DNA from: Stegostoma tigrinum
Taxonomy: Eukaryota
Assembly: GCF_030684315.1 (NCBI RefSeq)
Contig: NC_081373.1
Span: 25,459,989 to 25,523,988 of the forward strand
Length of the DNA: 64,000 bases
Direction: 5' to 3'
A model generated the notes under the pieces. It searched no databases, was not told the origin of the DNA, and saw nothing but the letters and a program-made list of their open reading frames with translations. Positions 6,930 through 62,246 of this stretch are shown here, one piece after another (position 1 is the first letter of the stretch; every line of letters begins with the position of its first letter). The position numbers and the translations under genes were made by a program.

Positions 6930-8690
6930 TTTGATTCGCTGTTGTTAGAGATCTGTCCCACTGTGGTCGGGTCATCAGCAAACCTGTAGACGGTACTCGT
7001 TCGGAATTTGGCAACTAAGTTGTAGGTGTACAGGAAGTACAGTAGGAGGCTGAGGACACATCCTTGGCAGGCTCCAGAGTTGAGTGTGAGAGGAGGTGCA
7101 GTTACCTATCCTCACTGATTGCAGTCTATAGGTCAGAAAGTGGATGATCCAACAGCAGAGGGTGGAGCTGAGACCAAGGTCTCAGTTTTGAGATCAGTCT
7201 CGGGGGGATAATGGTATTGAAGGCAGAGCTGTGGTCAATGAGCAGGAGTCTGACATAGGTGTCTTTGTTGTCCAGATGTTCCACGCATGAGTGCACAGCT
7301 AAGGATCTAGCATCTTCCGTGGATCTGTTGCGTCAGTAGGCAAACTGTAGGGGATTGAGGCAGGTTGGGATACCGGAGTTGATGTAGGTCATGACCAGTC
7401 TCTCGAAGCACTTCATGATTACTAAAGGCAGAGCTACTAGGCAGTAGTCATGAACGCACATTGCATGTCTTTTTTTGGGGTAAGGGGATGATGGTGGTCT
7501 TCTTGAAGCAGGTGGCGATTTTGGCTTGTGGGAGGGAGATGTCGAAGATGTCAGTGAATACCTCTGCAAGTTGGTCTGCACAGGATCAGACTGCTCGGCC
7601 GTGGACACCGTGCAGACCCTGGCGCTTTCTGTAAGATGTAAGATTGTAAGATTCCCTACAGTGTGGAAACAGGCCCTTCGGCCCAACAAGTCCACACCGC
7701 CCCTTGGAGCATCCCACCCAGACCCCTCCCCCTATAACCCACACACCCCTGAACACTACGGGCAACTTAGCATGTCCAATCCACCTAACCTGCACATCTT
7801 TGGACCGTGGGAGGAAACCGGAGCACCCGGAGGAAACCCACACAGACACGGGGAGAATGTGCAAACTCCACACAGACAGTTACCCGAGGCTGGTATCGAA
7901 CCCGGGTCCCTGGCGCTGTGAGGCTGCAGTGCTAACCACTGAGCCACCGTGCCGCCCCGTTTCCTTGGGTTAACTCCCAGGAAGATTAATCCGACTTCTG
8001 AAGCAGTGACAGAGGGTACAGGTGTGACTGGAGCCTCTAGGGCAGACATTACCACGCCAGTGGTATTCTGCTCAAACCGAGCGGAGAAAGCACTGACTGA
8101 GACAGGGAGGGATGAGTCATTGTCCACTATCTTACACTGTTTCATTTTGTATCCCGTAATGTTGTTTAGGCCTTGCCATAGACAGTGGGAGTCTGTTTGG
8201 TCAGTCTGGGCCTTTAACTTGGTCCAGTACTGCCTTGTGGCGTCCCTGGTGGCTCTGCAGACGTCATATCTGGATTTTCTGTATTAGTCCTGCTCATCTG
8301 AAGACCAGGCATGCAGCATTCAAATCAGTAGGAAGTGGATTTCCTGGCTCATCCAAGGTTTTCGGTTGGGGAATGCTCAGATTGATTTCTTTAGTACACA
8401 GTCCTGCATGCATTTGCTGACCAAGTCCATGACAGTGGTGGTATACTTATCCAGGTTTTCCACTTAACACATCCAGACAAGAGTCCAAGCAGTCCTGGAG
8501 ACAGTCCTCTGTTGCCCCGGAACAGTACTGAACTTTGTTTCGTCAAGGGTTCTACCATTTCAGCTTCTGCTTGTAAGCTGGGAGGAGGAACACGGTGCTG
8601 TGGTCAGATTTTTGGAAGTGCGGGCAAGGGATTGAGGTAAGCACCTTTGATGGTTGTGTGGCAGTGGTCCAGAATGTTCAGGCCTAATGC
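6930..8690 (-). mobile_element. Rex1/Babar-type LINE RT fragment interrupted by a SINE
   Basis: DYCLVALPLVIMKCFERLVM..CLNPLQFAY peptide typical of Rex1/Babar RT; frameshifted. Confidence 0.75.
7631..7957 (-). mobile_element. tRNA-derived HE1/V-SINE-like SINE
   Basis: Head GGCGGCACGGTGGCTCAGTGGTTAGCAC..GGTTCGAT (A/B boxes), V-domain core GTGTGGAGTTTGCACATTCTCCCCGTG, CR1-like tail with short repeats. Confidence 0.9.
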
Positions 8691-13849: not shown

Positions 13850-14075
13850 TTCTGAAGAAGGGTCTAGGCTCGAAACACCCGCTTTCCTGCTTGGTTCATC
13901 CAATTCTACACTTGTTATCTCAGATTCTCCAGCATCTGCAGTTCCTGCTATCTCTTGACTAAACTGAAAGTTCTGAGGAAAGGTCACTGGACCCAAAAAC
14001 ATAGACTGTTTTTTTCTCCTTCACAGATGCTACCAGACCTGCTGGGCTTATCCAGCAATTTTGTTTTTGTTACTA
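13850..14075 (+). mobile_element. Two adjacent short Penelope-type terminal fragments (families A and C) with decayed hammerhead cores
   Basis: CTGAAGAAGGGTCTAGGCTCGAAAC.. and CTGAGGAAAGGTCACTGGACCCAAAAAC.., each followed by family-typical 3' sequence. Confidence 0.6.
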
Positions 14076-14371
14076 ACCTTCTAGCATTTTGTGATAAAAT
14101 TGTCCAGTTTTATTCCTCATCTAGAGGACTAATACAGATTTGTATCATGACAGTGTCAGTTGCTGCATCAAACAATTTGAAATTCTTACTTGAAATATCT
14201 GAGCAAGATGTTTTCTTAATGTTATTTTAGAACAGTGCCAAAAAGAAGTGCTCCTCAAAACATGTTTTAGGCAATGTTAAATTTAACAGGCAAGTTATTA
14301 CTAGTGGCAGGTTTAGCTATAAAAATCAGTCAGCTTCTAACGCCGCACTGTCGGGCGAAAGGCTCTATCTG

Positions 14372-14646
14372 TTGATAATGAAATGTGAGGTTGGGTGAAC
14401 ACAGCAGGCCCAGCAGCATCTCAGGAGCACAAAAGCTGACGTTTCGGGCCTAGACCCTTCATCAGAGAGGGGGATGGGGTGAGGGTTCTGGAATAAATAG
14501 GGAGAGAGGGGGAGGTGGACCGAAGATGGAGAGAAAAGAAGATAGGTGGACAGGAGAATACAGGTGGGGAGGTAGGGAGGGGATAGCTCAGTCCAGGGAA
14601 GACGGACAGGTCAAGGAGGTGGGATGAGGTTAGTAGGTAGGAGATG
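14372..14646 (-). mobile_element. Penelope-type terminal repeat fragment (family A) with intact minimal hammerhead core at 14438-14465
   Basis: Minus strand CTGATGAAGGGTCTAGGCCCGAAACGTC; near-identical to the copies at 24441 and 30470. Confidence 0.75.
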
Positions 14647-14712
14647 TTAATGGTTTTTGCTCAAACTGGTTATGAGGTCGTTTAGAACACATCAGCTTCC
14701 CAGAGTACTTAC

Positions 14713-14836
14713 TTGTACTGAAGTTGCACTTATGACTTAGAGAGGTTGAACTCCGCCAGTTTGCTGCATTTTTGTGTCTGCAGTGCAGTCGGAGAGCCGC
14801 AGAAACTCCCCTGGCGTATAAGCATGCACGAGAAAG
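14713..14836 (-). CDS. PRDX3: Peroxiredoxin-3 coding exon 2 (LSRACLYARGVSAALRLHCRHKNAANWRSSTSLSHKCNFST)
   Basis: ttgcag|...|gtaagt boundaries; 124 nt; phase 0 to 1 fits exon 3. Arg/Ser-rich and free of acidic residues, as expected for a mitochondrial presequence. Confidence 0.85.
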
Positions 14837-15044
14837 CTGCAAATCAACAGAAACGGAGAAGATACAAGATCACTCCAAGTGAACTACGCTTGGACGAATG
14901 TTAAATTTATGTTTCTTGCAGACGTAAGAGAAGTAAAACCATAAATTGATAGTAGTGTGGCTCCCCAAACAAATTAAGTGAAATAATCAGAAATTCAGAT
15001 CGCTTTATATCTTTCAATTTAACAAAACAAAAATGTGTTAAGGA

Positions 15045-16066
15045 GGTTGGGGGGGAGGGGGGGGGGGGGGGGGGGGGGGAAGAGAGAAAGAGAAGTGGGG
15101 GGGGGAGAGAGAAGTGGTGGGGGGGGGGAGGAGAGAGAAGTGGTGGGGGGGGGGGAGAGAGAGAAGTGGTGGGGGGGGGGGGAGAGAGAAGTGGTGGGGG
15201 GGGGGAGAGAGAAGTGGTGGGGGGGGGGGAGAGAGAGAAGTGGTGGGGGGGGGGGAGAGAGAGAAGTGGTGGGGGGGGGAGAGAGAAGTGGTGGGGGGGG
15301 GGAGAGAGAAGTGGTGGGGGGGGGGAGAGAGAAGTGGTGGGGGGGGGGAGAGAGAAGTGGTGGGGGGGGGGAGAGAGAAGTGGTGGGGGGGGGAGAGAGA
15401 AGTGGTGGGGGGGGGAGAGAGAAGTGGTGGGGGGGGGAGAGAGAAGTGGTGGGGGGGGGAGAGAGAAGTGGTGGGGGGGGGGGAGAGAGAAGTGGTGGGG
15501 GGGGGGAGAGAGAAGTGGTGGGGGGGGGGGAGAGAGAAGTGGTGGGGGGGGGGGAGAGAGAAGTGGTGGGGGGGGGGAGAGAGAAGTGGTGGGGGGGGGG
15601 AGAGAGAAGTGGTGGGGGGGGGGAGAGAGAAGTGGTGGGGGGGGGGAGAGAGAAGTGGTGGGGGGGGGAGAGAAGAAGTGGGGGGGGGGGGGGAGAGAAG
15701 AAGTGGGGGGGGTGGAGAGAGAAGAAGTGGGGGGGGTGGAGAGAGAAGAAGTGGGGGGGGGGTGGAGAGAGAGAAGAAGTGGGGGGGGGTGGAGAGAGAG
15801 AAGAAGTGGGGGGGGGGGGTGGAGAGAGAGAAGAAGTGGGGGGGGGTGGAGAGAGAGAAGAAGTGGGGGGGGTGGAGAGGGAAGAAGTGGGGGGGGGTGG
15901 AGAGAGAAGAAGTGGGGGGGGGTGGAGAGAGAAGAAGTGGGGGGGGGGGGGTGGAGAGAGAAGAAGTGGGGGGGGTTGGAGAGAGAAGAAGTGGGGGGGG
16001 GGTGGAGAGAGAAGAAGTGGGGGGGGGTGGAGAGAGAAGAAGTGGGGGGGGGGGGGGGGGAAGAAA
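15045..16066. repeat. Purine-rich minisatellite (GAGAGAAGTGGT(G)n, then GAGAGAAGAAGT(G)nT) in PRDX3 intron 1
   Basis: About 22-26-bp units with variable G runs, visible directly. Confidence 0.95.
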
Positions 16067-16477
16067 GGTGACCTTCGCCAACTGGCTGCAGGAATTGAAG
16101 ACCAGCAGACAGATTGTCAGTTAAAAACTGTGGCCTCCTGATGCTGCTCCAGCAAAAACGTGGAGCCATATCGCCACGTGATTGGGGTAAAGCAGTCACC
16201 ACACGGGACGGGGTTAAAAACACAAACTCCAAGTCTCTTCAGAGAGGGAAAAGGGGGCAAGTAGACATTTCGTGCATCTAAAGGTATGGTTCACTGGGAC
16301 ATCTAGAGAGCGGCAAATGGCCACAGGCTGTCCAGCAAACATTGACGAGGCACCCGGTACTGACGAACAACGCCATTTGGGGGAGGTGGGAGAGGGAAAG
16401 AAAGCCACATTTCAGATATAACGAGTATTCACTACGACCGCGACACAAAGAAATGGAGAGAATTCCCCTTCACACAC

Positions 16478-16498
16478 CCGAGTCACAGTCGCCGCCAT
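16478..16498 (-). CDS. PRDX3: Peroxiredoxin-3 coding exon 1 (MAATVTR, start of mitochondrial targeting peptide)
   Basis: Minus strand reads taagATGGCGGCGACTGTGACTCGG|gtgtgt in a CpG-rich promoter. Phase 0 joins exon 2 in frame. The donor position is less certain than the others. Confidence 0.75.
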
Positions 16499-16726
16499 CT
16501 TAGTGTCCACAGCCCCGCCCCCTCCAGGGGGAACGCTGGGCCGCTGTTAAAAATGACCATCAGTTATCAAAAAACACACCGAATTCAATGCTCCGAAAAC
16601 AACACGCAAAGCCCGTGTTAAATAACATAGAAATAAAACAAACAAAATTAAACAGCGCCAGGACCCCGCCCACAGTCCATGCCGGATGTGATGTCACCAA
16701 ATGCGCGCAATTTCCGGAGGAGCAAG
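16499..16726. promoter_or_regulatory. Bidirectional promoter shared by PRDX3 and LSM1
   Basis: Divergent ATGs separated by 228 bp. GC boxes at ~16512-16522 and ~16664-16671. ETS-like CCGGAT (16682) and TTCCGG (16712). NRF1-like TGCGCGCA (16702-16709). YY1-like AAGATGGCG overlaps the PRDX3 ATG. Confidence 0.75.
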
Positions 16727-16772
16727 ATGAACTACATGCCAGGGACAGCTAGCCTGATAGAGGACATTGACA
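16727..16772 (+). CDS. LSM1: U6 snRNA-associated Sm-like protein LSm1, coding exon 1 (MNYMPGTASLIEDID)
   Basis: caagATGAACTACATGCCAGGGACAGCTAGCCTGATAGAGGACATTGACA|gtaagg; 46 nt; matches the recalled vertebrate LSM1 N-terminus. Confidence 0.95.
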
Positions 16773-17750
16773 GTAAGGGAATGTATTAAATATTTATCAT
16801 CGGCGAGTTGTAGCCAACCTCATGTGGGGTGTCGGTAGTAAAGAAGTGTATTTAATTTTCATTACGTTCAGCTGTAGTCAGTCTGGTGCAGGACGTTAAC
16901 AGTAAGAGAATATACACATTTATTGTTATGCCTGGCTGTAGGCAGTCTGATAGAGGACATTGATGGTAAGGGCATGATGCTCAATTGTCATCATGTAGAG
17001 TTGTAGTCAGTGTGAAAGAGGCTATTGGCAGCAAGGGAGTGTACTCTCACTACCTGTGCTCAATTGTCATCAGTTCAAGCAGTCGCCAATCTGAGAGAGT
17101 TACATTGTCAGTAAGGGAATATATTCAATTACTGTCATGACAGGCTGTGGTCAGTCTGATAGAGGATGTTGACAGGAATGGAAAATACTCAATTATCATG
17201 TTGATCTACAGTTGGTCTGATAGAGGACATTGATAGTAAAGGAAAATACACAATTATCATTATGTTGAGCTGGAATCACTTTCGTAGAGGACCTTTATAG
17301 TTAGGTAATACACTCAATTATCATCATGTCAAACTGTAGTCAATCTGATGGAGGACATTTGAAAGTAAGGGAATAGACTCAATTATTGTCATGTTGAGCT
17401 GTATTCTGTCTGAGAACAATGATAGTAAGGCAATATTCTCACACTGTAGACTCAATTATTATCATTATCATCATCATGTCGAGATATAGTCAGTCTGATA
17501 TGGGGCATTCACATTTGGGGAATAGACTCAATTACCACAATGTGCTGAAGTGATTCTGATAAGCAACATTGACAAGAATGGAATATGGTGTCATTCTCAC
17601 AGTATTCTCAAATATTGTCACATCGAGTTATAACCAATCTATTTGCATAATTTGGTAGGGAATATACTCACAATGGACACTCAATTATCATGTCAATCTA
17701 TAGTCAGTTTGCTCGAGGACATTGACAATAAGGGAATATACTCACATTGC
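16754..17750 (+). repeat. Degenerate ~64-bp tandem array (~15 units) derived from the LSM1 exon 1/intron 1 junction
   Basis: Approximate consensus CTGATAGAGGACATTGACAGTAAGGGAATATACTCAATTATCATCATGTTGAGCTGTAGTCAGT. Units begin near 16754, 16819, 16883, 16947, 17012, 17091, 17156, 17217, 17281, 17345, 17410, 17495, 17556, 17639, 17709. Confidence 0.9.
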
Positions 17751-17769
17751 ATCACTAAAATCAAAGAAG

Positions 17770-18430
17770 ATCTGTAAAATCTTTTAAAAGTGTTTAAAAT
17801 GTAAACATTTGGCTGAAATAAATATAGGTTCTTTACAGGCACAGTTGGAAGAATTTATACTGGGAAATAGAGAAATGAGAGAGAAGCTAAATGATAAAAT
17901 TTTGTCTGTTTCTCTGTGAACTTACCAGAAATCTCTCAGAAGTAGCGATCCTAGTGACTGAGAATGATAAGTTGAAAGAATTTAGAGTTAGTATGAAGAT
18001 TGTACTTGAGAAATAATGGATTCTAAAGTTGATAAATGGCCAGGACATGAAACACTACATCACAGAGTGTTGAAGGAAATGGTTATAGAGGTAGTCATTG
18101 CATTGATGGTTTTATTCCAAAATTCTGTAGATTCTGTAAAGATTGCTGCAAGTTTGGAAAGTATTGAAAGTCATCCCACTATTTAAGGGACAGAGAGAAA
18201 ACAGGGAAGTACATACCCTTTAACCTTACATCAGTAGTCAGGAAAATGCTAGAATCTAGTATAAACAATGGGATAAATAAACACTAGTTGATAATTACTT
18301 GGTTGGGCATGGTCCGGATGAATTTGTGATTGGAAAATTGTATTTCACAAGCTTATTGGCGTTTTCTGAAAATGGTACAATATGAATAAAGGAGAACTAA
18401 TAGATCTAGTATATGTAAATTAAAATAAAG
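17770..18430 (+). mobile_element. Old CR1 LINE ORF2 fragment
   Basis: Decayed ..GP(G)H..LHHRVLKE..IPLFK..LTSVVRKMLES motifs. Confidence 0.6.
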
Positions 18431-19649
18431 GGAAAAAATTGTTTACATCTTATTCAGGAAATATCAAAATGCATTGCATATTGTAGAACTCGTGTGAGCA
18501 AGTATATACAGACACTGAAAACTAATGAGCTATATTACCTGGTTAAATTATTGCCCATTATGTCAATTCATGGAATGGAACATGTTAGTCTTTTACACCT
18601 ACTGTCAGCATCAAGCAATTAAATCAACTGTAACACAGAAGGGTGTATACTTAAGTTGTGTGGAGCCAGGTGTAGATATCTTTTCTATTATCTCCACAAT
18701 GTACCCAATGATCTACAGTAAACTACACATGAGTTTAAATTTATGAATATGCCATTGGGCTGTGTTCATATTTAATTGTAATAATTGTAGGAAGTATAAA
18801 TATATACAGGGCTAGACATCAGTGCTCCTGAGACTAATTTCCCACATGAAATGTAAAACAACCAAGACAACAACCAGTGCATAATGTTATTTTGAAATTA
18901 TTTTTAAGAATTTGTATATTATAAATGTTGTCAAAATTTCCTTTTGCTGAATTTCTACATATGTTTGATTCTGTAAAATTAACAGACCACCATATCAATT
19001 GAAAATAGTAATGTATTTCATCGTTGTTTGCCATTAAAATTGTTGCACCACTATGAATATCATGACATATAAATATTCAATGTCAAATGAAACTTAAAAT
19101 AATTGAGAAATATATGTCTTATGAAGGAAAATATTATGGAATTTATAACATCTATATGTGTATATTTTGATTTACAGCACTAGAAACTGCGAGTATTGCT
19201 CCAGTGACCCCTTTTAGTATTTCTAATAGTTTCACTTTTGCTTTTAAAGAATGACTTTTTAAAACAGAACTTTAAATATCAAGTGTTTATTTTTTAATAA
19301 GTCCATGTCTTGTAAATCTTCCTCAAAGAAGAGGGCTGTTTTTCTCATGTAAATTTTAGATTAATTCTTTAGTTATTTGATATTGGATGAGGTGGTATTG
19401 TCTTTCTTTCCAGACCTGATGGTCGTGTTGGAAAGCAATTTTAAATAAACGAAGGATACACTAAACTTTGGTAACTGCATCATACGTGGGAATAATGATT
19501 TTTCAAACTATTTGTAGTACTAAGACTGGTTTCCAGGATTTGAAAGGATACTTGTCTTTGCTCCCACATGAAAGGAACTTACAGACTGCAAATTCTGTGA
19601 ATAGACAAATAAGCCTCAAGTCGTTATGCAGTAACATCTGTTGCTTATT

Positions 19650-20005
19650 TTTCATTCATTCGTGGGATGAAGGCATCGCTGGTAAGACCAGCAATTATTG
19701 CCCATCTGTAATTGCCCAGAAGGCAGTCAAGAGTCAACCACATTGCTGTGGGTCTGGAGTCACATGTTGGCCAGATCATGTAAGGATAGCAGTTTCCATC
19801 CCTAATGGACATTAGTGAATCAGGTGAGCTTTTTTCCCAACAATTAGCAATGGATTCATGGACGTCATTGTACTCTTAATTCCAGATTCTTTTAAAATTG
19901 AATTCAAATTCCACCATCTACCATGGCAGGATTCAAAGGTCCCCAGAACATTACCTGGGTCTCTCAATTAACAGTTCAGGGATAATACCTTAGGACATCG
20001 CTTGT
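19650..20005 (-). mobile_element. SacSINE1/DeuSINE-like SINE
   Basis: Deu-domain-like CCACATTGCTGTGGGTCTGGAGTCACATG..CCCTAA..GGACATTAGTGAA. Related copies at 48648-48980 (-), ~31400-31670 (+), 56262-56570 (+), ~58800-59005 (+). Confidence 0.7.
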
Positions 20006-20934
20006 CCAAGAGTTTAAAACTAAAGTTCCTATATACATATAAAGTAGATGAGAGTGTGTGTTTGAGCAAAGAATATTATTGAACGTCAGAGCTGTTATTG
20101 TCTTCCACCACCAATACCATCAAAATGCATTCACTGCCTTTAAGTCTGAAGCTAAAACTAAACAAAGTTAGAGAGGGTTTTGCCATACCCCATGGTCCAA
20201 ATCTGAACACAATTTAGTGCATGAATAGAGGAAACTTTGGAAGTCAATACTCTTTTCAGTCCAAAGATGCAAAAGATTCAAAACTCATTTGTAAAATGGC
20301 AGTTCAGCCAACATTAAGAAGAAACAGGATGCTTCTTCTCATTTGCTTTATTCACATCGCACTTTTAGTGATCTACTGCTAAAGTACACCTTCTGAGAAA
20401 GAGATTTTGTGTGAGAAATGACTTTAATGATATGATAATAGTATAGTAGGGATAGGATTCCTCCCCGCCAGTTCACACCACTTTTGACACATACTCAATC
20501 ATTTCATTTGTTAGTTTGTACTGTACTTTCTTGTGTTTCTCTGGGTTTATTTTGTAAAAACTCCTCACATCTAAAAACTTTCTGTTTTGGAACAAAGCAT
20601 AATTAGTCATATGCATAATCTGTCAGATTTAGCTGATAATGATCATTATAACAGAATTTATGCTGTAAATATTGCCATACCTTATCCAGTTGTTCCTTCA
20701 GCTGATTGGCACAATTATTGTTTGCTATGTCTGACTGCTACTTGCAAGATGGCAGTGTGCTCCTGAGATGCTGCTTGGCCTGCTGTGTTCATCCAGCTCT
20801 ACATTTTGTTATCTTTGCCTGGCTTGGCTGTTGTCTTTTTCCTACATAGGCAGAGATTGGTTACACCTTCTACTATCCATCATCCACAAGTGATTTAAAA
20901 CAAATTCTGGCTAATCCAACTCTGCCCAGCACTA

Positions 20935-22770
20935 AACGTGTGCTTTGCAATGCCCAGTTGACTCTTCCCTGCATACGTATGGCAGCTCATTCCATACATG
21001 CATTACCCTCTGTGTGGAAAAAAAGTTGCCCTTTAGGTCCCTTTTAAATCTTTCCCCGCTCACGTTAAACCTATGCCCTCTAGTTTTGTACTCCCCTATT
21101 CTGGGAAAAAGACCTTGGCTATTCACCCTATCCATACACCTCATGATTTTATAAACCTCTGTAAGGTCACCCTCAGCGCCCAACACTCCAGAGAAAATAG
21201 CCTCAGGCTATTCAGCATCTCCCTATAGCTCAAACCCTCTAACTCCAGCAACATCCTTGTAAATCTTGTCTGCACCTTTCAAGTTTAACAACATCTTTCC
21301 TATATAGCAGGGGGACCAGAATTGAACACAGTATTCCAAAATTTGTCTAACTAATGACATGTATGGCTGCAACACGACACGAATGCACTGATTGAGAAAG
21401 GCAAGCTATCAAACGCCTGATGAAGGGTCTAGGCCCGAAACGTCAGCTTTTGTGCTCCTGAGATGCTGCTTGGCCTGCTGTGTTCATCCAGCCTCACATT
21501 TTATTATCTATCAAACGCCTTCTTCCCTACCCTGTCCACCTGACTCCACTTTCAAGGAACTATGAAACTGTACCCCAAGGCAACATTTGGCAAAACACCC
21601 CAAGACTCTACCTTAAGTATATAAGCCCTGCTCTGATTTGCCTTAACAAAATGTGATACCTCATATTTATACAACTTAAACTCCAGCTGCCACTCCTCCG
21701 CCCATCTGATCAAGGTCCCATTGTACTCCAAGATTGCCTTCTTCACTGCCCACTCCACCACCAGTTTTGGTGTCATCTAAAATCTTACTAACTTTTCCTC
21801 CTATATTCACATCCAAATCGTTTATATAAATGACTAAAAGCAGTAGACCCAGCACCAATGCTTACGGCTCACTGCTGGTCACAAGCCTCCAATCCGAAAC
21901 CAATTTTCCACCATCTGTCTTTGTCTCCTACCTTCAAGCCAATTTTGGATCCAAATGGCTGGCTCTCCTCTGATTCCATGTGATCTAACTTTACTAATCA
22001 GTCTACTATGTGGAATCTTGTTGAATGCCTTACTGAAGTCCAATTAGATTACATCCATTGATCTGCCTTCCTCAATTGTCTTTGTCACTTCAAAAAACTC
22101 TATCAAGTTAGTGAAACGCAGTTTCCCACAGACCATTTTGACTGTCCCTAATCAGTTCTTGCCTTTCCAAATACATCTAAATTCTGTCCCTCAGAATCCC
22201 CTACAACAACTTACTCACTACTGACTTCAGGTTCAACAGTCTATAGTTCCCTGGCTTTCGCTTAAAGCTTTTCTTAAATAGTAGCACCACATTTACCACC
22301 CTCTAGTCTTACGGTGCTTCACCCTTGGCGGTTGATGGTTAAAATATCTTAGCAAGAAGCCCAGCAATCACTTCCCTTGCTTCCCACAAATTTCTAGGTT
22401 ACACCTGATCAGGTCCTGGAATTTATCCACTTTTATGCAGCTTAAGAGGTCTAGCACCACCCCTCTTAGACAGTTTTTCAAGATATCACTGTCTATTTCT
22501 CCAAGTTCTGTAACTTACATATGCTCCACTGTAAATACTGATGTGAAATACTAATTTATTATATCATTGGTTTCCTGTGGTTCCACACATAGACAGTTTT
22601 ATTAATTTTTAAGGGGCCCTATTCTCTCCCTACTTACACTTTTGGTCTTAATATATTTATAGCATCTCTTTGGATTCTCCTTAACCCTATTTGCCAAACT
22701 GCCTAATGTCCTCTTTTTGCCCTCCTGATTTCCCTCTTGAGTTTACTCCTATTGCCCTTATATTCCCATT
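20935..22770 (-). mobile_element. CR1 LINE ORF2 fragment (~1.8 kb, frameshifted)
   Basis: VLG.LLLVIYINDLD..DDTK RT motif and GDLTEVYKIMR..TRGHRF C-terminus. Confidence 0.9.
21417..21507 (+). mobile_element. ~90-bp hammerhead-core insertion (family A) with 13-bp TSD
   Basis: CTATCAAACGCCT duplicated at 21406-21418 and 21508-21520, inside the CR1. Confidence 0.8.
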
Positions 22771-24440
22771 TACTGCAGCTGATTGAGCATCTCCAACCCT
22801 TCTAATCTATGCAATAGTGGTCCACTTGATCTTTCAAGATGGCATGACCAGCACGTTGGAGATAGATCACTCACATTGGGGCCAATTTGACTTTGCACAG
22901 CCGTGTACAAGTGATTGCAAACTTTCAACCTGTTTTATGTCTTTCCTTATTTTCTTCCGTTGCCACTCTTAAGAACATCTTTGCAATATTTAGCTCCTTT
23001 CCTTCACTTACAGAGAGAAAGAATTGAAACTTTTGCTTAGTGCCCTGCAAAACAGAGAAGATTGTTGTGAAATGCAGATTTGCATTGCAGTCTTGAATAA
23101 ATCACTTCATGATCAAAACTTTTTTTTTGAAGGGAAATAAAATATACAGTGTCTAAACAACAACAACTGCACTCAGTGCTATGAGTTCAACTGTTCAATA
23201 CATAATTCAAGGAGCCCTATCATCTATTTCAACACAAAAACAAGAGTGTCCCTGCTGGAAACCAGAAATAAAAACAGAAAATTCTGAAACTTACAATAGG
23301 TCAGGCAGCACATGAAATATTAGTTGTCTATGAGGTTGTTGACTTGCTTATCGAGCTGTTTTGTTTCCGTTCAGACGTTTTGTCACGATGCTAGGTGACA
23401 TTATCAGTGAGGCCTTGGATGAAGCAATGTTGTTCTACTCTGCTGGGAATTTGTACTGTCCGGACTGTGGTGGTGAGTAGTGTCATTTCTGTTTTTGATC
23501 TGTATGAGTTTGTATATGGGGTCCAATTCTATATGTTTATTGATCAGAACTACGGGGTTAAAAACCATGCCTGTAGGAATTCCTGTGTGTGCCTGTATTT
23601 GGCTTGGGCAACTTTGGTTACGTTGTCCCAGTTAAACTGACGGCCTTCATTGTCTGAGTGTACTGATACTGAGGAAAGTTTGTTGTGGCAATTTGCTGCT
23701 AGCTGGTGTTCATGTATTCTGATGGCAAGTTTCCTTCCTGGCTATCTGATGTAATGTTTATGGCAGTCATTGCACGGTGTGTTGTAAACCATGTTGGTTC
23801 TGTATGTTGTGCGAATGGGTCGTCTTAATTCTTGGGAGTGTTTGTCCCCACAATATTCCCGCAACTTCATCTGCAGATGCCTACTAAACAGACAACAACA
23901 GGAGGAAACTGTGCACCCTAACACACTGGCCACACTGCCCTATATCAAGAACATATTAGATCTGGTAAAAGGACTCCTAAGACCACTAGGAATCATGGTA
24001 GCACACAAGCCCACTGCTACTCGGTGACAAACACTCAGAAGGATTAAAGACCCCGTTCCCACAACATGCAGAACCTACATGGTTTACAACATACCATGCA
24101 ATGACTGCCAGAAAAATTACATTGGATAGACAGGAAGAAAACTAGCCATCAGAATACATGGACATCAGCTCACAGCAAAACAATGTGACAAACTTTGCTT
24201 AAAATCAGTACACTTAGACAATGAAGGCCATCAGTTTAACTGGGACCATGTAACCATAGTAGCCCAAGCCAAACATAGACACACATGGGAATTCCTAGAG
24301 GCATGGTTCTCCACTCATAATGCTATCAACAAACATATAGAATTGGACCCCATATAAAAACCCACAGAGATCAAAACTGGAAATGACACTACTCACCACA
24401 ACAGAGCGGACAGTATAAATTTCCAACAGAGTAGAACAAC

Positions 24441-25166
24441 GTGTGGAGCTGGATGAACACAGCAGGCCAAGCAGCATCTCAGGAGCACAAAAGCTGACGT
24501 TTCGGGCCTAGACCCTTCATCAGAGAGGGGGATGGGGAGAGGGAACTGGAATAAATAGGGAGAGAGGGGGAGGCGGACCGAAGATGGAGAGAAAACAAGA
24601 TAGGTAGAGAGGAGAGTATAGGTGAGGAGATGGGGAGGGGATAGGTCAGCCCAGGGAAGACGGACAGGTCAAGGAGGCGGGATGAGGTTAGTAGGTAGGA
24701 AATGGAGGTGCGGCTTGAGGTGGGAGGAAGGGATGGGTGAGAGGAAGAACAGGTTAGGGAAGCAGAGACAGGCTGGGCTGGTTTTGGGATGCAGTGGGGG
24801 GAGGGGACGAGCTGGGCTGCATCCCACACCAGCCTAGCCTGTCTCTGCTTCCCTAACCTGTTCTTCCTCTCACCCATCCCTTCCTCCCACCTCAAGCCGC
24901 ACCTCCATTTCCTACCTACCACCTCATCCCACCTCCTTGACCTGTCCGTCTTCCCTGGGCTGACCTATCCCCTCCCTACCTCCTCACCGCGCCTCCCCCT
25001 CTCTCCCTATTTATTCCAGTTCCCTCTCCCCATCCCCCTCTCTGATGAAGGGTCTAGGCCCGAAACGTCAGCTTTTGTGCTCCTGAGATGCTGCTTGGCC
25101 TGCTGTGTTCATCCAGCTCCACGCTTTGTTATCTTGGATTCTCCGGCATCTGCAGTTCCCATTATC
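24441..25166. mobile_element. Young foldback Penelope-type insertion (family A) nested in the element above
   Basis: Arms ~24441-24794 and ~24817-25122 are reverse complements. 15-bp TSD ACAGAGTAGAACAAC at 24426-24440 and 25167-25181. Confidence 0.88.
25040..25071 (+). ncRNA. Minimal hammerhead ribozyme motif (family A)
   Basis: CTGATGA-A-GGGT(CTAG)GCCC-GAAA-CG-TC. The same core is on the minus strand at 24496-24523, 14438-14465 and ~30573-30600. Confidence 0.62.
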
Positions 25167-25199
25167 ACAGAGTAGAACAACATTGCTTCATCGGCAGCC

Positions 25200-25240
25200 T
25201 TACTGATGATGTCACCTATTTACGGTGACGAAACGTCTGA
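25200..25240 (+). ncRNA. Minimal type I hammerhead ribozyme motif in a Penelope terminal repeat
   Basis: CTGATGA-T-GTCACC(TATTTAC)GGTGAC-GAAA-CG-TC: conserved core, 6-bp helix II, palindromic ACGT helix III, 3-bp helix I. Activity untested. Confidence 0.7.
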
Positions 25241-27139
25241 ATGAAAACAAGCCAGCTCGGTGAGCAAGACAACAACCTCACCCACAACCCAAGCTACAAA
25301 TCTTAGCTAAAACTTTAAATTAGCTGTCTATCTCTCTATTTCCTATTTCACTTGTATAAGTTTAATGATTTCCATTTGAAGTTTCAATAGCAATTATTCA
25401 TTTTTATTTTGGGTGTAAGATATTTTGGGGCAATTGTTCCACATCTGCAAGAACATGGAATGATTCTGTCTGACTTGTAGAGCCAGGAGGTACTTGCTGT
25501 ATTTGTAGACAAAGTGGGAACATTTTCAGCAGCCTGTACTGTACTATAGACAGAGCTGGACAGCACATCAGGACAACCGTTATCAGCGGTAGAGCCCTTG
25601 AAGGAATGTTACCTCAGTGTAACTTATTTTTGAGTAGAATAATAACAAACAATGAACAAGCTAAATTTTTGTCTGTCAGTGGGCCATTTTACTCAGCTTA
25701 AATAAAATGCCTTTTAATTATCCTCCGAAATTCTTCTGAACCTGATGAAAGTTTGCCCTCAAAACCTGTTTCAAAACCTGACTGGTTGCTTGGGTCTCTG
25801 TTGCTATGTTCAGAACAAAATAAAGTCTAGGCCAGAACAACCCCTTGCAATATTATAGTCTACTTAATTAACAATTTAACTACCTTTCATTTTCAGTGCC
25901 TTTTGTGCTGAATATAATTTGCATTAAGCAAATCCAATAAATCTAACTTTTGACTTGAGATAATGCTCCTAGCCCTCTTCTGTTTAAGGACTCTCAAATT
26001 ATTGCTCCATTTACTCTTCTATATTCATCAGCTGATTGGCTCAAAATTAAAACACTCAAATAATAGAATAACTATTTTGCATGTCTTGAAATTTGAAATA
26101 TGATTGATTTATTAAGATGGTTGGCCTGAATCCTGCAGCTACATGCATGAGACTTTGCTATGTCAATTCAAGAGCATTTAACAACATACTTTTCAATCTT
26201 GTCCTCTGTCTTGACCCCATGTTAATACTGTTTTCTTCTAATATTGAAACCATTTGTATTTCATGAAAAATGTTTATTTATATTTATTGTAGAAAATGAT
26301 ACCAAAATAGTTCACAGATGTAATGCAAAATTAATGTTGAAGCAAAAGGAAGAACTTATAACCAGAACTAAGGAATTTGAGGGAGTTTAGAAAATGTTGT
26401 GTATTAGGAGACAAAAATAGCTTTAGGAATACGTAATCAGAAGGAAGGCTCTGTAGCTGCATGACCTACAAGTTCATTTCACAGATCATGAAATGTTTCC
26501 AAATCAACAGCCTTGTCAAGTTGCATTCCACATGAACATAGTTACCTCCACAACTCTGGTGCATGACTGTAGAGTGATCTCCCCAGGCTGGGTGGATTTT
26601 TTTTTATATGTGTGTCCTCTTTTAGAATCCTGTGGGGATTCTAAATCCTCTTTTAGATTTTCTCAACAAATGTAGGAAATTCCTCTCAAAATGTTGGCAT
26701 GCAGCATGCTGCTGGGTGCTTTAATCCACTTGAGGTTATTTGCAAACAAAAGAATTCTTCTGTTTCTTGTTTACTCAGTGAGAGTCAAAGGATCACAAAC
26801 GTTTAGAAAACTTTTTATTCAGGATAACACAAACCTAAGCTGCTATGTATCATTTTCATGATAATAGCCTTGATGTAAGTGACAGATTGCTGTATTTCGA
26901 TTTCTAAACTAAAAGATGCCAATTTTCATCTAGGCAATGCATTGATAGTATGTAGAACGAGACAGTTTTCAATAAATGTAGCAGCAAAAATGGCAACACC
27001 TACTGAACTGTGTGCTCAACCAATGTTCAAAATTCCAAAAGGATGCCTCACATCATAACATGACTGCTTTGTTTTTTTTAATGCTTGATAAAAGGAGGGA
27101 ATATTCTCAATTCATACTATTAATTCAATATTGAAAGCA

Positions 27140-28080
27140 ACCAATTTATTTTGCTAGAATGACTTCCATTTCTGTAGCACTTTTAAAGTGGTAAAATGGT
27201 GAAATAGTCAAGTCCAGACTATCAAAGGCATGCATGAGTGTTTCACGAGCAAACGAATTGAAACAGCTAAGAGTGAGATGATGTAAAAGGTGGGAATGGG
27301 CAGTTTTAGTGATGGCATGAGTCTGTGATTTGAGCCACATTTTCATATCAAACATGATTTCAAGCTTACAAAGTTAGTTCAGCCTCTTAACAGGTGCCAA
27401 GGAATTAATAGAACCAGTGCGAGGGGGTGGAGTTTGTAACGGAGATGAAAAACAATGACTTCAGACTTCCCAGCATGTCATTTTAAGCAAATTTTGGCAA
27501 ATCTGATATTGGATGTTAAAAACTCTCATAACTTAGAAATAATAGATGAGTCAAGAGAGGTGGTGTGACATGAAGCTGGATGTCATCAGTGCTGATGTGA
27601 AAGTCAGTGTTCTGCTTTGGGTGTTGTGTTTTTGGATGGGGGTTCAGGTAGATCTTTCAGAGACACCAGTGGGGCTCATGCTGGAGCAGGAAGGCAAGAA
27701 CAGCATTCACTACTTTAGTGGAACATAAATTGTTGAATTCTGAATTGTTTAGCCATTGTTATAGTTTGAGAGAGGTGATAACCATGGTATGTCAAAAGGA
27801 CAGGGTCATGGGTGAATAGGATTGGTTCAAACACCAAAGTTTTGGATGAATAGAAGGTGAAGCGGGGATGGGGGTGGGGTCAGGGGGCAGTGGGGCCATC
27901 GGGGAAAACGTTGGAACTGTTGATTTTGAAGATAATGAATGGATGTGGCTTGCAGTACAAGTACAGCAGTGATACATAGGCAATGTTACAAGGATAAAAG
28001 CAGTTGGTTTTCGTAATTAGCAGAGTATGAGTCTGGAATCTCACAGGTTAATGCCTCAGTTAAGATAGCAGTCAGAGGAA
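27140..28080 (-). mobile_element. Highly decayed L2 LINE fragment
   Basis: ..ITKTAHSHL..ETLMHAF..LD-like L2 RT C-terminal remnants. Confidence 0.45.
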
Positions 28081-28433
28081 TGTCAGACATTATGAGCTAA
28101 CCTTCATGCAGTAAAAGTTCAAGGTTTCAATAATGGTTTATTCGCAGACTTTAGAATTTACTGCACAGAAACAGGCCATCTGGCTCAAGTCTGAGTTGAT
28201 ATCTATGTCTACCAACTTATGTTTCTGTTGTACTCATCAATACTGAAGGTCCCACTATTGTATATTGTGGCTTACGGATGGAACCTTCAATGGTTCCAAA
28301 TTACAACTGTGTACTTGTGTTGAACTACAAAGCAAGATTTCCAACAGTTTGTTCCGATAAATTTCTGAGTGTATTTTTTCACAGGACCCTTATGATTAAT
28401 CGTATTATTTAAAATATTTCGTTTTATTTACAG

Positions 28434-28502
28434 AAAAACATTTAGTAGTACTTCGAGATGGGAGAACATTAATAGGATATTTAAGGAGTGTAGATCAATT
28501 TG
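28434..28502 (+). CDS. LSM1: LSm1 coding exon 2 (KKHLVVLRDGRTLIGYLRSVDQF)
   Basis: tttacag|...|gtgagt; 69 nt; Sm1 motif. Confidence 0.96.
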
Positions 28503-32506: not shown

Positions 32507-32622
32507 CTAATTTGGTTCTTCATCGGACAGTGGAACGAATCCATGTAGGAAGAAAATATGGTGACATTCCCAGAGGGATTTTTGTTGTCCGAGGAGAAAA
32601 TGTGGTGCTTCTGGGGGAAATA
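32507..32622 (+). CDS. LSM1: LSm1 coding exon 3 (ANLVLHRTVERIHVGRKYGDIPRGIFVVRGENVVLLGEI)
   Basis: ttgcag|...|gtgagt; 116 nt; Sm2 motif VRGENV. Confidence 0.97.
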
Positions 32623-33502: not shown

Positions 33503-33673
33503 GATCTGGAAAGAGAGACCGATACTCCCTTACAGAGGGTGTCTATTGAGGAGATTCTGGAAGCTCAAAGAGTTCAGCAGCATGAAAAACAAGAAGCAGA
33601 AAAGGCAAAAAGTGAAGCTTTGAGAGAACGAGGATTATCTATCCCCCGTACAGATACTCTTGACGAATACTAA
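33503..33673 (+). CDS. LSM1: LSm1 coding exon 4 (DLERETDTPLQRVSIEEILEAQRVQQHEKQEAEKAKSEALRERGLSIPRTDTLDEY*)
   Basis: ccttacag| acceptor; LSm1-specific C-terminal helix. The four exons total 402 nt = 133 aa plus stop. Confidence 0.97.
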   Translation, partial: DLERETDTPLQRVSIEEILEAQRVQQHEKQEAEKAKSEALRERGLSIPRTDTLDEY

Positions 33674-37309: not shown

Positions 37310-37892
37310 TGTAGTGATTGTGACAAGGTCAGCCAGGTGGACCTCATAGAATATGAATTCCCTGATTGGGGCTGTTAGCCTGGTCCAATAAGGGAGCCCT
37401 ACCTGACAGGCATAAGCAGATATGTCAGGGGTTCTGCACACTCTGAGAGCTGGCTGTGAAGAAGCCGGACTAATAGATTAAAGCCAGACTTTTGGGGTGG
37501 CACGGTGGCTCAGTGGTTAGCACTGCAGCCTCACAGCACCAGGGACCCGGGTTTGATTCCGGCCTCGGGTAACTGTCTGTGCGGAGTTTGCACATTCTCC
37601 CCGTGTCTGCGTGGGTTTTCTCCGGGTGCTCCGGTTTCCTCCGACAGTCCAAAGATGTGCAGGCTAGGTGGATCGGCCATGCTAAATTGCCCATAGTGTT
37701 CAGGGGTGTGTGGGTTATAGGGGGATGGGTGTGGGTGGGATGCTTCAAGAGGCGGTGTGGACTTGTTGGGCCGAAGGGCTTGTTTCCACACTATAGGGAA
37801 TCTTAACTAATCTAATCCAATATCAAGTATAATGCACTTGTACGTAAAACGTAGCTTGGTGATGGAATACTGGCCTCTGTAGAGTTATTTCA
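37310..37892. mobile_element. Candidate solo LTR (TG...CA, 5-bp TSD GTTAG) with a nested SINE
   Basis: GTTAG at 37305-37309 and 37893-37897; termini TGTAG.. and ..TTTCA; removing it rejoins the CR1 sequence. Confidence 0.65.
37494..37818 (+). mobile_element. HE1/V-SINE-like SINE
   Basis: Full tRNA-like head, V-domain and CTAAT-type tail; close to the 7631 copy. Confidence 0.9.
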
Positions 37893-40208: not shown

Positions 40209-40545
40209 GGGCGGCAAGGTGGCTTAGTGGTTAGCACTGCTGCCTCACAGTGCCAGGGACTCGGGTTCGATTCCACCCTCAGGTCTGTCTGTCTGTGTGG
40301 AGTTTGCACGTTCTCTCTATGTCTGGGTGGGTTTCCTCCAGGTGCTCTAGTTTCCTCCCACAGTCCGCAGATGTGCAAGCGAGGTGGATTAGCCGTGCTA
40401 AATTGCCCATAGTGTTCAGGGATGTCTAGTTTAGGTGGGTTATAGGGGGTTGGGTCTTGGGTGGCATGCTCTGAGGGTCGGTGTGGACTTGTTGGGCCGA
40501 AGGGCCTGTTTCCACACTGTAAGGATTCTAAGAATTCTAAGAATA
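40209..40545 (+). mobile_element. HE1/V-SINE-like SINE followed by a family A Penelope-type fragment (40550-40645)
   Basis: tRNA-like head, core and (ATTCTAAGA)n tail. Confidence 0.88.
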
Positions 40546-43500: not shown

Positions 43501-43849
43501 ATACTTAGGCCTTGAGTAGGCTATTTTGCAATAATAGTCTCAGGCTTTCTAGGAAATAAAGATTAATCTTCAAGTCACTGCTGTGAAAAACGGAAACAAA
43601 AATCACTGGGTTTATTTTAGAAATCATTTTCTTTTGAGCACTTCTGTGAAGCAGACGAAAAATGTTTAATCGCACAAGGTCATTGCAGATAGGAGGTCTT
43701 GTAATGAAACTTCCAGGAATAGGTCTAAGCAGAGCTGACAACCCTAATCTATATTTCTTTGGAATGTACTGAGTTTACGAAAAAGGATTTTTTTGCAGCC
43801 TTCTACACAGAATTACAATGATTTTTATTGGCTGTGTCAGTTTTCAACG

Positions 43850-44180
43850 AATCTCTACAGAATTGAAACAGGCCATTCAGCCCATTGGGTCTACATTGAC
43901 CTGACAAACAGCATCCCACCCACTGCCCTACTCTATCCCCACATTTCTCATGGCTAATCCACTAGCCTGTACATCCCTGGACACTACAGGAAAATTTAGC
44001 ATGGCTAATCCACCTAACCTGCACATCTTTGGGCTATGGGAGGAAACCAGAGCACCCAGAGGAAACTCATGCAGACACAGGAAAATTGTACAAATTCTCC
44101 ACAGACAGTTACTCAAGCTTGGATTCAAACCCAGGTCCCTGGTGCTTTGAGGTGGCAGAGCTAACCACCGAGCCACAATG
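43850..44180 (-). mobile_element. HE1/V-SINE-like SINE
   Basis: Reverse-complement head and core. Confidence 0.82.
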
Positions 44181-44764: not shown

Positions 44765-45082
44765 ATCATAGAATCCCTACAGTGTGGTAATAGGCCATTC
44801 GGCCCAACAAGGCTACACTGACACTCAGAGCACCCCACCCAGACCCATCCCCTGTAATCCACATAATCTACACTTCCCTGAACACTACCAGCAATTTAGC
44901 ATGGCCAATCCACCTAGCCTGCACATCTTTGGATTGTGGGAGGAAACTGGAGCACCTGGAGGAAACCCACAGAGACACGGGGAGAATGTGCAAACTCCAC
45001 ACAGTTGCCCAAGGGTGGAATCGAACCAGGTCCATGGCACTGTGAGGCAGCAGTGCTAACCACTGAGCCACTGTGCCACCCT
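44765..45082 (-). mobile_element. HE1/V-SINE-like SINE
   Basis: Reverse-complement head and core. Confidence 0.85.
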
Positions 45083-61158: not shown

Positions 61159-61478
61159 TGTGGTGATGCCAGTGTTGGACTGGGGTGGACAAAATCGGAA
61201 GTCACACAACGCCAGGTCATAAATCACTTTGGAAGCACTGCTCCTTCTTCGTGTAGCACTGCTCCTACCTCATGTGAAGCCCTGCTCCTTCCTCATGTGT
61301 AGCACTGTTCCTACCTCATGTGAAGCACTGCTCCTTCCTCATGTGTAGCACTGCTCCTTCCTCATGTGTAGCACTGCTCCTTCCTCATGTGAAGCACTGC
61401 TCCTTCTTCATGTGATGTGGACTATAACCTGGTTTCATGTAACTTTGTCCACCCCAGTCCAACACTGGCATCTCCACA
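61159..61478. mobile_element. Family B foldback element with an internal 23-bp tandem repeat
   Basis: 35-bp terminal inverted arms TGTGG(T/A)GATGCCAGTGTTGGACTGGGGTGGACAAA; about 8 copies of AGCACTGCTCCTTCCTCATGTG(T/A) at ~61234-61415. Confidence 0.8.
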
Positions 61479-62194: not shown

Positions 62195-62246
62195 ATGGAG
62201 CTGGAGAATATAGTCGCTAACACGGTCTTGTTAAAAGCCAGAGAAG
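62195..62246 (+). CDS. GRK5: G protein-coupled receptor kinase 5, coding exon 1 (MELENIVANTVLLKARE)
   Basis: tccATGGAGCTGGAGAATATAGTCGCTAACACGGTCTTGTTAAAAGCCAGAGAAG|gtaatg; 52 nt; GRK4/5/6-subfamily N-terminus. The GRK5 call rests on adjacency to PRDX3. Confidence 0.88.

Follow-up and report, generated by a model that had tools for sequence, protein, structure and literature searches.

The boundary between exon 1 and intron 1 of LSM1 in the zebra shark Stegostoma tigrinum has been copied into a tandem array of 15 head-to-tail units, the first of which holds the true end of exon 1 and the authentic 5' splice site. The array is real and very old, and we regard it as most likely a neutral fossil, a series of latent 5' splice sites with occasional leaky use. 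The initial annotation of this DNA had noticed about 15 units at a period of about 64 bp starting at the true LSM1 junction, and had proposed a decoy-donor or U1-loading cassette that tunes LSM1 output or promoter directionality, with neutral slippage debris as the fallback. The array is borne out by a profile and by autocorrelation, and the fallback proved to be the best-supported reading. The window, that is, the whole stretch of DNA analysed, has 64,000 nucleotides (RefSeq assembly GCF_030684315.1, contig NC_081373.1, positions 25,459,989 to 25,523,988, forward strand), and all positions below are counted from its first letter.

LSM1 is intact on the forward strand, where its four coding exons join into a 133-aa frame, and PRDX3 stands head-to-head with it on the reverse strand. 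The parts of the two genes are as follows.

16478-16498, reverse strand: candidate coding exon 1 of PRDX3, with its ATG at 16498 and a deduced donor position
16727-16772, forward strand: coding part of LSM1 exon 1, 46 nt, phase 1
16773-16778, forward strand: authentic LSM1 5' splice site, ACA/GTAAGG, of moderate strength
28434-28502, forward strand: LSM1 exon 2, with its acceptor at 28434, 69 nt, Pfam LSM match
32507-32622, forward strand: LSM1 exon 3, Pfam LSM match, best PDB matches being Lsm1 chains
33503-33673, forward strand: coding part of LSM1 exon 4, including the stop

The peptide of exon 4 is identical to that of the named LSM1 proteins of the zebra shark and the whale shark, and the acceptor at 28434 had been placed correctly. 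An upstream in-frame ATG at 16679 would add 16 residues (16679-16726, forward strand); this extension is the annotated start in LSM1 of both Stegostoma tigrinum and the whale shark, and it may be plain 5' UTR. Intron 1 measures 11.7 kb. The later PRDX3 exons were located on the minus strand by motif and Pfam, and the likely PRDX3 start at 16498 lies 229 bases from the LSM1 ATG, across a CpG-rich stretch, which bears out the shared promoter anatomy described earlier.

The surroundings of the two genes hold further features. PRDX3 intron 1 contains a 1-kb, nearly pure purine, G-rich tandem (15049-16055, period about 23, 40 copies) some 450 bases from the promoter; it has G-quadruplex or triplex potential, and the assembly there is perhaps unreliable. 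At 62195-62246 (forward strand) lies the first coding exon of a G protein-coupled receptor kinase, which we take to be of the GRK4/5/6 type, giving the order PRDX3 (reverse), LSM1 (forward), GRK (forward). Human PRDX3 adjoins GRK5 and human LSM1 lies on another chromosome; the PRDX3-LSM1-GRK order may represent an older linkage. A stretch of about 300 bp (61169-61468) has the look of a small mobile element: inverted repeats of at least 17 bp bound it, and inside lies a 23-bp tandem of 8.1 copies. A dispersed repeat of about 310 bp, presumably an HE1-type SINE of sharks and rays, has copies at 7643-7958, 37494-37805, 40209-40535, 43849-44176 and 44766-45081.

The array occupies the beginning of LSM1 intron 1 and reaches back into the exon.

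16745-17765, forward strand: tandem array of 15 head-to-tail units of 64 bp, of which unit 1 (16745-16809) spans the exon 1/intron 1 boundary

These limits replace the 16754-17750 given by the initial annotation, and the homology with the exon possibly extends to position -28 instead of -19. The base equivalent to donor position +1 falls at 16773, 16838, 16902, 16966, 17031, 17111, 17175 and 17236 in units 1-8 and at 17300, 17365, 17425, 17514, 17575, 17655 and 17728 in units 9-15. Ten of the 14 spacings between units are 60-65 bases and four are 73-89; insertions of 10-25 nt occur in units 5, 11, 13 and 14, and unit 15 breaks off after a similar variant. As had been read before, GTAAG is present in units 1, 3, 4, 6, 10 and 11, GTAAA in units 2 and 8, GTTAG in unit 9 and GTAGG in unit 14. 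The consensus donor of the array is identical to the authentic LSM1 donor.

The period stands out as an autocorrelation at lag 64 (z 7.1), which ranks third among the rows of the window scan. A profile made from 10 units found 14 units at E <=0.007, four of them outside the seed, and a 15th in part at E 0.11; over the 64-kb window it gave no match outside the array better than E 0.62. Tandem Repeats Finder, suggested earlier as a check together with an alignment of the units, detects just 2.9 copies (17216-17401) owing to the divergence of the units (among units 2-15, pairwise identity averages 0.67 and peaks at 0.80), and the alignment recovers 15. At positions -28 to -20 the exon and the consensus differ at five of nine bases, all by transitions, so either the unit extends into the exon beyond 19 bases or the look-alike sequence there seeded slippage. 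Units 5, 11, 13, 14 and 15 (within 17031-17765) have a longer variant in common after +15, which suggests that the unit had a second length and was amplified in more than one round; on the core columns these five are not a clade (of 2002 random sets, 1528 share as much). Units 2, 6 and 14 share more than random sets do (2 of 364), a set that was however chosen by eye.

The exon came first, and the array derives from the LSM1 exon 1 junction, as the initial annotation held. Of 48 named LSM1 proteins from outside the chondrichthyans, 18 show a recognisable form of the peptide that closes exon 1, and these range from hagfish to birds and marsupials; no dispersed copy of the unit lies in the window. 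The other named non-chondrichthyan proteins have different predicted N-termini, and 24 unnamed matches were left out of the comparison.

The description of the units as strongly diverged, and of the array as old, also holds. Units 2-15 differ from their consensus by 0.197, which corresponds to about 0.23 substitutions per site from the ancestor after correction. The tree of the units is star-like, with 11 of its 12 inner branches unresolved, a bootstrap that had not settled and weak traces of substructure. The available text of one study gives a dS of 0.061-0.111 for the zebra shark compared with the whale shark over about 50 Myr (PMC13100897), and that of another reports low mutation rates in sharks (PMC10587355). 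On this shark synonymous clock the array would be roughly 205-373 Myr old, a figure that gives an order of magnitude because introns may change faster than synonymous sites. Carpet sharks and ground sharks split about 170-200 Myr ago, and it is plausible that both lineages share the origin of the array.

The copies downstream of the authentic junction have decayed uniformly, and their donors have not been under array-wide selection. The 14 downstream units retain GT in nine cases and GTAAG in five. Conservation of the GT and AAG positions above the rest of the unit, proposed earlier as a check on function, is not found in units 2-15, where 22 of the 28 cells in the GT columns agree with the consensus (0.786) as against 0.789 over all 64 columns. 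Donor windows of 2, 5, 6 and 9 columns show no excess conservation in these units; among the 64 windows of two columns 40, and among the 64 of nine columns 38, are as conserved as the donor or more so. A neutral simulation of 20,000 runs, with substitution rates taken from the non-donor columns, predicts 8.78 GT dinucleotides and 4.27 GTAAG words where 9 and 5 are observed, and 3.36 sites at or above the ancestral strength where 3 are observed; the best score (P 0.12) and the summed scores (P 0.27) also lie within it. The columns do not differ in their rate of decay (heterogeneity chi-square 58 on 60 df, p 0.55). A block at +7 to +20, mostly outside the U1-pairing region, is somewhat better kept, at a level that is not significant after scanning (P 0.084).

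The same method detects selection where it is present, namely at the exon end and donor of unit 1. From -19 to +6 this unit shows no departure from the consensus (25 of 25 positions), where the other units agree at 13-23, and its intron part from +7 to +36 agrees at 22 of 30 positions, within the 20-28 of the others. As to power, if 2, 4 or 7 downstream units had been protected, the chance of seeing nine or fewer GT would be 0.48, 0.30 or 0.07. Protection of at least 10 units is thus excluded outright and that of seven is unlikely, and the test is blind to selection on a few units.

This limit bears on the possibility that the array has been co-opted as a tuning element, in which a few downstream donors (those of units 4 and 10 at best) are maintained and divert LSM1 pre-mRNA into unproductive or N-terminally altered isoforms, the remaining units being debris. 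We consider this unlikely. Units 4 and 10 are indeed the best preserved (56 and 57 of 64 positions) and also have the strongest predicted donors, scoring above the authentic site on an approximate frequency matrix. The sites concerned, with the stop that precedes them, are as follows.

16787-16789, forward strand: TAA, first in-frame stop on read-through of the authentic donor, codon 21
16963-16971, forward strand: latent donor of unit 4, ATG/GTAAGG, strongest predicted, score 9.2 against 5.9 for the authentic donor
17362-17370, forward strand: latent donor of unit 10, AAA/GTAAGG, second strongest predicted, score 8.4 against 5.9
17422-17430, forward strand: latent donor of unit 11, ATA/GTAAGG, predicted about equal to the authentic donor, 6.2 against 5.9

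Against such tuning, the best and summed donor scores do not leave the neutral range given above, and the premature stop offers little help. The initial annotation had located this stop and stated rightly that splicing from any downstream array donor would include it (codon 21, or 37 from the upstream ATG). The stop was considered as a sign of design and rejected, since translation of the consensus unit runs into a stop shortly before the following donor, a consequence of its length (64 = 3n+1). Intronic donor-like sites mostly have a preceding stop, according to the accessible part of one report (PMC3510495), and mammalian NMD is weak in a start-proximal zone (PMC12776119). The LSM1 stop lies far upstream of two later junctions, yet in or near that zone as mammalian data define it, so that decay would be inefficient if sharks are alike. 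This would weaken the model of splicing plus NMD for the array, and sharks may differ from mammals. The peptide read through from exon 1 has no match in the PDB. The maintained decoy-donor cassette of the initial annotation is not supported by these results, its donor positions having no excess conservation and its stop being automatic and start-proximal. In a titles-level listing, our literature search gave no paper centred on LSM1 autoregulation by unproductive splicing.

The LSM1 isoforms of other sharks give the argument for use of the copies its main substance. We compared 23 named chondrichthyan LSM1 proteins and tested nine alternative N-termini against the array. The predicted isoforms of such protein entries would normally rest on transcript evidence. 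Four of the nine N-termini fit array units, so use of such copies in other sharks is, on these matches, probably not negligible. In isoform X2 of Scyliorhinus canicula the residues TSLIGDID are added where exon 1 meets exon 2, and 22 of 25 bases agree with the unit; the 24 bases of this peptide are exactly the span from an AG at -26/-25 to the donor, and its first residue is not the one that read-through of the GT would give. It reads as a copy used as a micro-exon. In Scyliorhinus torazame, X3 begins with MGDID (14 of 16 bases of the unit) and X4 with MEDID (15 of 16), both ending at the donor, as would be expected from copies with an in-unit ATG like that of unit 10 of Stegostoma. Outside the array, none of about 13,350 positions equals any of the three Scyliorhinus matches. 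X2 of the epaulette shark Hemiscyllium (MGSYSRS) agrees with the unit's intron-derived part at 18 of 22 bases, equalled at 1 of 13,345 positions. A doubled or bare form of the exon end occurs in none of 49 named non-chondrichthyan LSM1 proteins.

These matches point to similar copies in other sharks that are probably spliced at times, and indirectly to donors of the array type being spliceable there. They also count in favour of tuning; weighing against it, the isoforms that fit array units differ between species and none is common to several, and a single Stegostoma LSM1 protein is among the matches, in its normal form. In-frame forms that could arise from the in-array ATGs of units 2 and 11 are absent among the protein matches. 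The catshark peptides cover the exon-derived part alone, and so attest downstream copies of the exon end, not necessarily this array. The remaining five N-termini (MAKCL, MGIL and those of P0014, P0018 and P0023) were rejected as array products, having no match to it.

Two other observations concern these isoforms. MAKCL is an identical alternative N-terminus in Hemiscyllium and Carcharodon (P0004, P0011) that finds no placement in 14000-28433; should the two be homologous, they would represent a conserved alternative exon, with a stronger claim to a regulatory role than the array has. Annotations from three sharks, a caecilian, a wallaby and a mormyrid fish (P0001, P0002, P0013, P0025, P0039, P0088) include an LSM1 form that skips exon 2 in frame; this loss of part of the Sm fold turns up repeatedly among vertebrates.

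Towards the end of exon 1, the Scyliorhinus LSM1 proteins (P0013, P0016, P0017, P0019) carry a Gly at a site that is Glu, Asp or Gln in other vertebrates. The base behind this Gly is also G in some downstream copies, and 2 of 14 Stegostoma units have the same base by mutation alone. The change from Glu to Gly in both exon and copy of the catsharks could reflect gene conversion. Extending this line of thought, the array may be a galeomorph-wide relic more than 200 Myr old that serves as a reservoir of donors, start codons and a 24-nt micro-exon, recruited differently in each lineage, with some products selected and gene conversion back to the exon. We hold this to be improbable.

A U1-loading cassette, in which the repeated donors bind U1 snRNP without splicing and suppress downstream polyadenylation signals, would ease elongation along the 11.7-kb intron or tilt the shared promoter in favour of LSM1. 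Protection by U1 from premature cleavage is established, and the array lies in the first kilobase. Polyadenylation hexamers are also frequent just behind it: five A(A/T)TAAA fall within the 1.2 kb of 17766-19000, compared with 12 in the next 9.4 kb, in a stretch that is AT-rich (32-35 percent G+C). The first of them is the following.

17817-17822, forward strand: first AATAAA hexamer after the array

The predicted density of GT sites scoring at least as high as the authentic donor is about twice that of the rest of intron 1 (four in the array, or 4.1 per kb, against 21 in the remaining 10.7 kb, or 2.0 per kb). This density is nevertheless within background on the approximate matrix, since 26 of 128 equal-sized windows hold at least four such sites, and the antisense strand of the array carries three against the four on the sense strand, with 7 against 7 and 10 against 10 at lower thresholds. 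The U1-pairing positions are not conserved, and for 13 of the 15 units the predicted pairing with U1 is weak (-1.5 to -5.2 kcal/mol, against -11.1 for the exon 2 donor). Nor does control of directionality fit the locus, as both directions lead into protein-coding genes; the opposite one is PRDX3, a real gene whose transcript lacks the array. The U1-loading proposal of the initial annotation is not supported, and we judge a U1 cassette very unlikely.

Selection could instead have acted against the copies, silencing harmful downstream donors by faster loss or by a hiding hairpin. In the consensus, an imperfect stem of nine pairs, with 72 percent of its cells paired, can fold over the donor, and among the 15 donors the authentic one is the most accessible (0.116, the others 0.001-0.079), a one-in-fifteen result. 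GT loss, however, was not faster than neutral (P of nine or fewer 0.65), and the stem shows no covariation in 11 of the 15 units (250, 270 and 351 of 500 shuffles do as well as the real units). RNAalifold, run on 11 of the 15, gives just -1.75 kcal/mol, for a different stem, and folding is no better than in shuffles for the consensus (z +0.38), with single units at z +1.1 to -2.2. For the array as a whole this explanation is largely refuted and seems to us extremely improbable.

We give next to no credence to the unit being a dispersed repeat or a cluster of small RNA genes (antisense, C/D-box-like) that resembles the junction by chance, since words that we take to be C-box-like and D-box-like do occur once per unit on the antisense strand and a snoRNA model scores 16.6 bits (E 9.1), but this is far below the gathering score of 43, no copy lies elsewhere in the 64 kb, and the unit shares 19 bases exactly with coding sequence for a peptide that is conserved among vertebrates. 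Rfam gave no match at gathering scores over the whole 64-kb window and four chance-level matches by E-value over 16600-17900 (best E 0.96), and the antisense C/D-box idea was dropped.

The LSM1 array belongs with a described class, the junction-spanning minisatellites with 5' pseudo-sites: its first unit spans a real boundary, the donor is reiterated in the intron and the unit is 64 bp long. In the closest member, the 37-bp minisatellite of human F7 intron 7, the first unit likewise spans the exon-intron boundary and the authentic donor is followed by tandem copies; the accessible text reports that the functional donor lying furthest upstream is chosen even over stronger downstream copies, which stay silent even when strengthened (PMC1557585). 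F7 differs in having 5-9 identical, polymorphic copies, whereas LSM1 has 15 copies in intron 1 that are about 20 percent diverged from the consensus and apparently hundreds of millions of years old. The same text lists human 6-16 intron 2, CBS intron 13, lamin B2 and PDGF intron 4 as junction minisatellites with reiterated donors, comprising 10-26 copies with units of 81 bp in PDGF and 100 bp in lamin B2, and reports two downstream donors used in 6-16 and CBS and none in lamin B2 and PDGF (PMC1557585). These are human loci with transcript data, whereas the LSM1 array is a decayed shark fossil. An active VNTR was considered and rejected, as the units are not near-identical.

The array also resembles latent 5' splice sites as the accessible text of one paper presents them (PMC3510495), in that donor-like intronic sites lie downstream of the authentic LSM1 donor with an in-frame stop between, and such sites are normally unused; it differs in that its sites arose together by tandem duplication. 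With regulated unproductive splicing and decoy sites it shares an RNA-processing gene, a competing donor and a premature stop, and it departs from AS-NMD and poison exons in that its donors are not conserved and its stop is start-proximal. Poison exons, AS-NMD and intronic decoy elements are typically strongly conserved, and latent 5' splice sites are unused normally and activated by stress. Tandem repeats often affect splicing, and the available text of that work offers no closer match to the LSM1 array (PMC10078293). Our literature search found no description of the LSM1 array or of a shark example, most subscription papers lying outside its reach.

The neutral-fossil reading can be put as a sequence of events. 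A 64-bp stretch across the exon 1/intron 1 boundary would have been duplicated in tandem to about 15 copies in one main episode, by slippage that a short look-alike sequence 64 bp away may have seeded. The two length classes and the substructure of units 2, 6 and 14 hint faintly that a single burst is a simplification. Expansion probably preceded the split between carpet sharks and ground sharks, after which turnover would have stopped; only the first copy, with the real exon end and donor, was kept under selection, and the other 14 decayed uniformly. The nine GT-bearing copies would then be latent donors, three of them predicted to score at least as well as the authentic one. They are presumably passed over in the manner that the accessible text describes for F7, with the most upstream functional donor winning (PMC1557585), and this choice may be helped a little by the authentic donor being the least folded. 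Occasional leaky use, to judge from the other sharks, would yield 5'-extended or micro-exon isoforms that are tolerated noise and not regulation.

As it stands, the array has little import for LSM1 biology, and it adds to the class described from human F7, CBS, 6-16, lamin B2 and PDGF. If the reservoir idea were true, the array would amount to a natural experiment in the origin of new exons from junction repeats over deep time. On the neutral-fossil reading it is a clean natural control, with 14 replicate donors freed from selection beside one under selection in a slow genome. The known examples of the F7/CBS type are young human arrays, and the LSM1 array of the zebra shark shows the fate of such a junction minisatellite long after its turnover stops.
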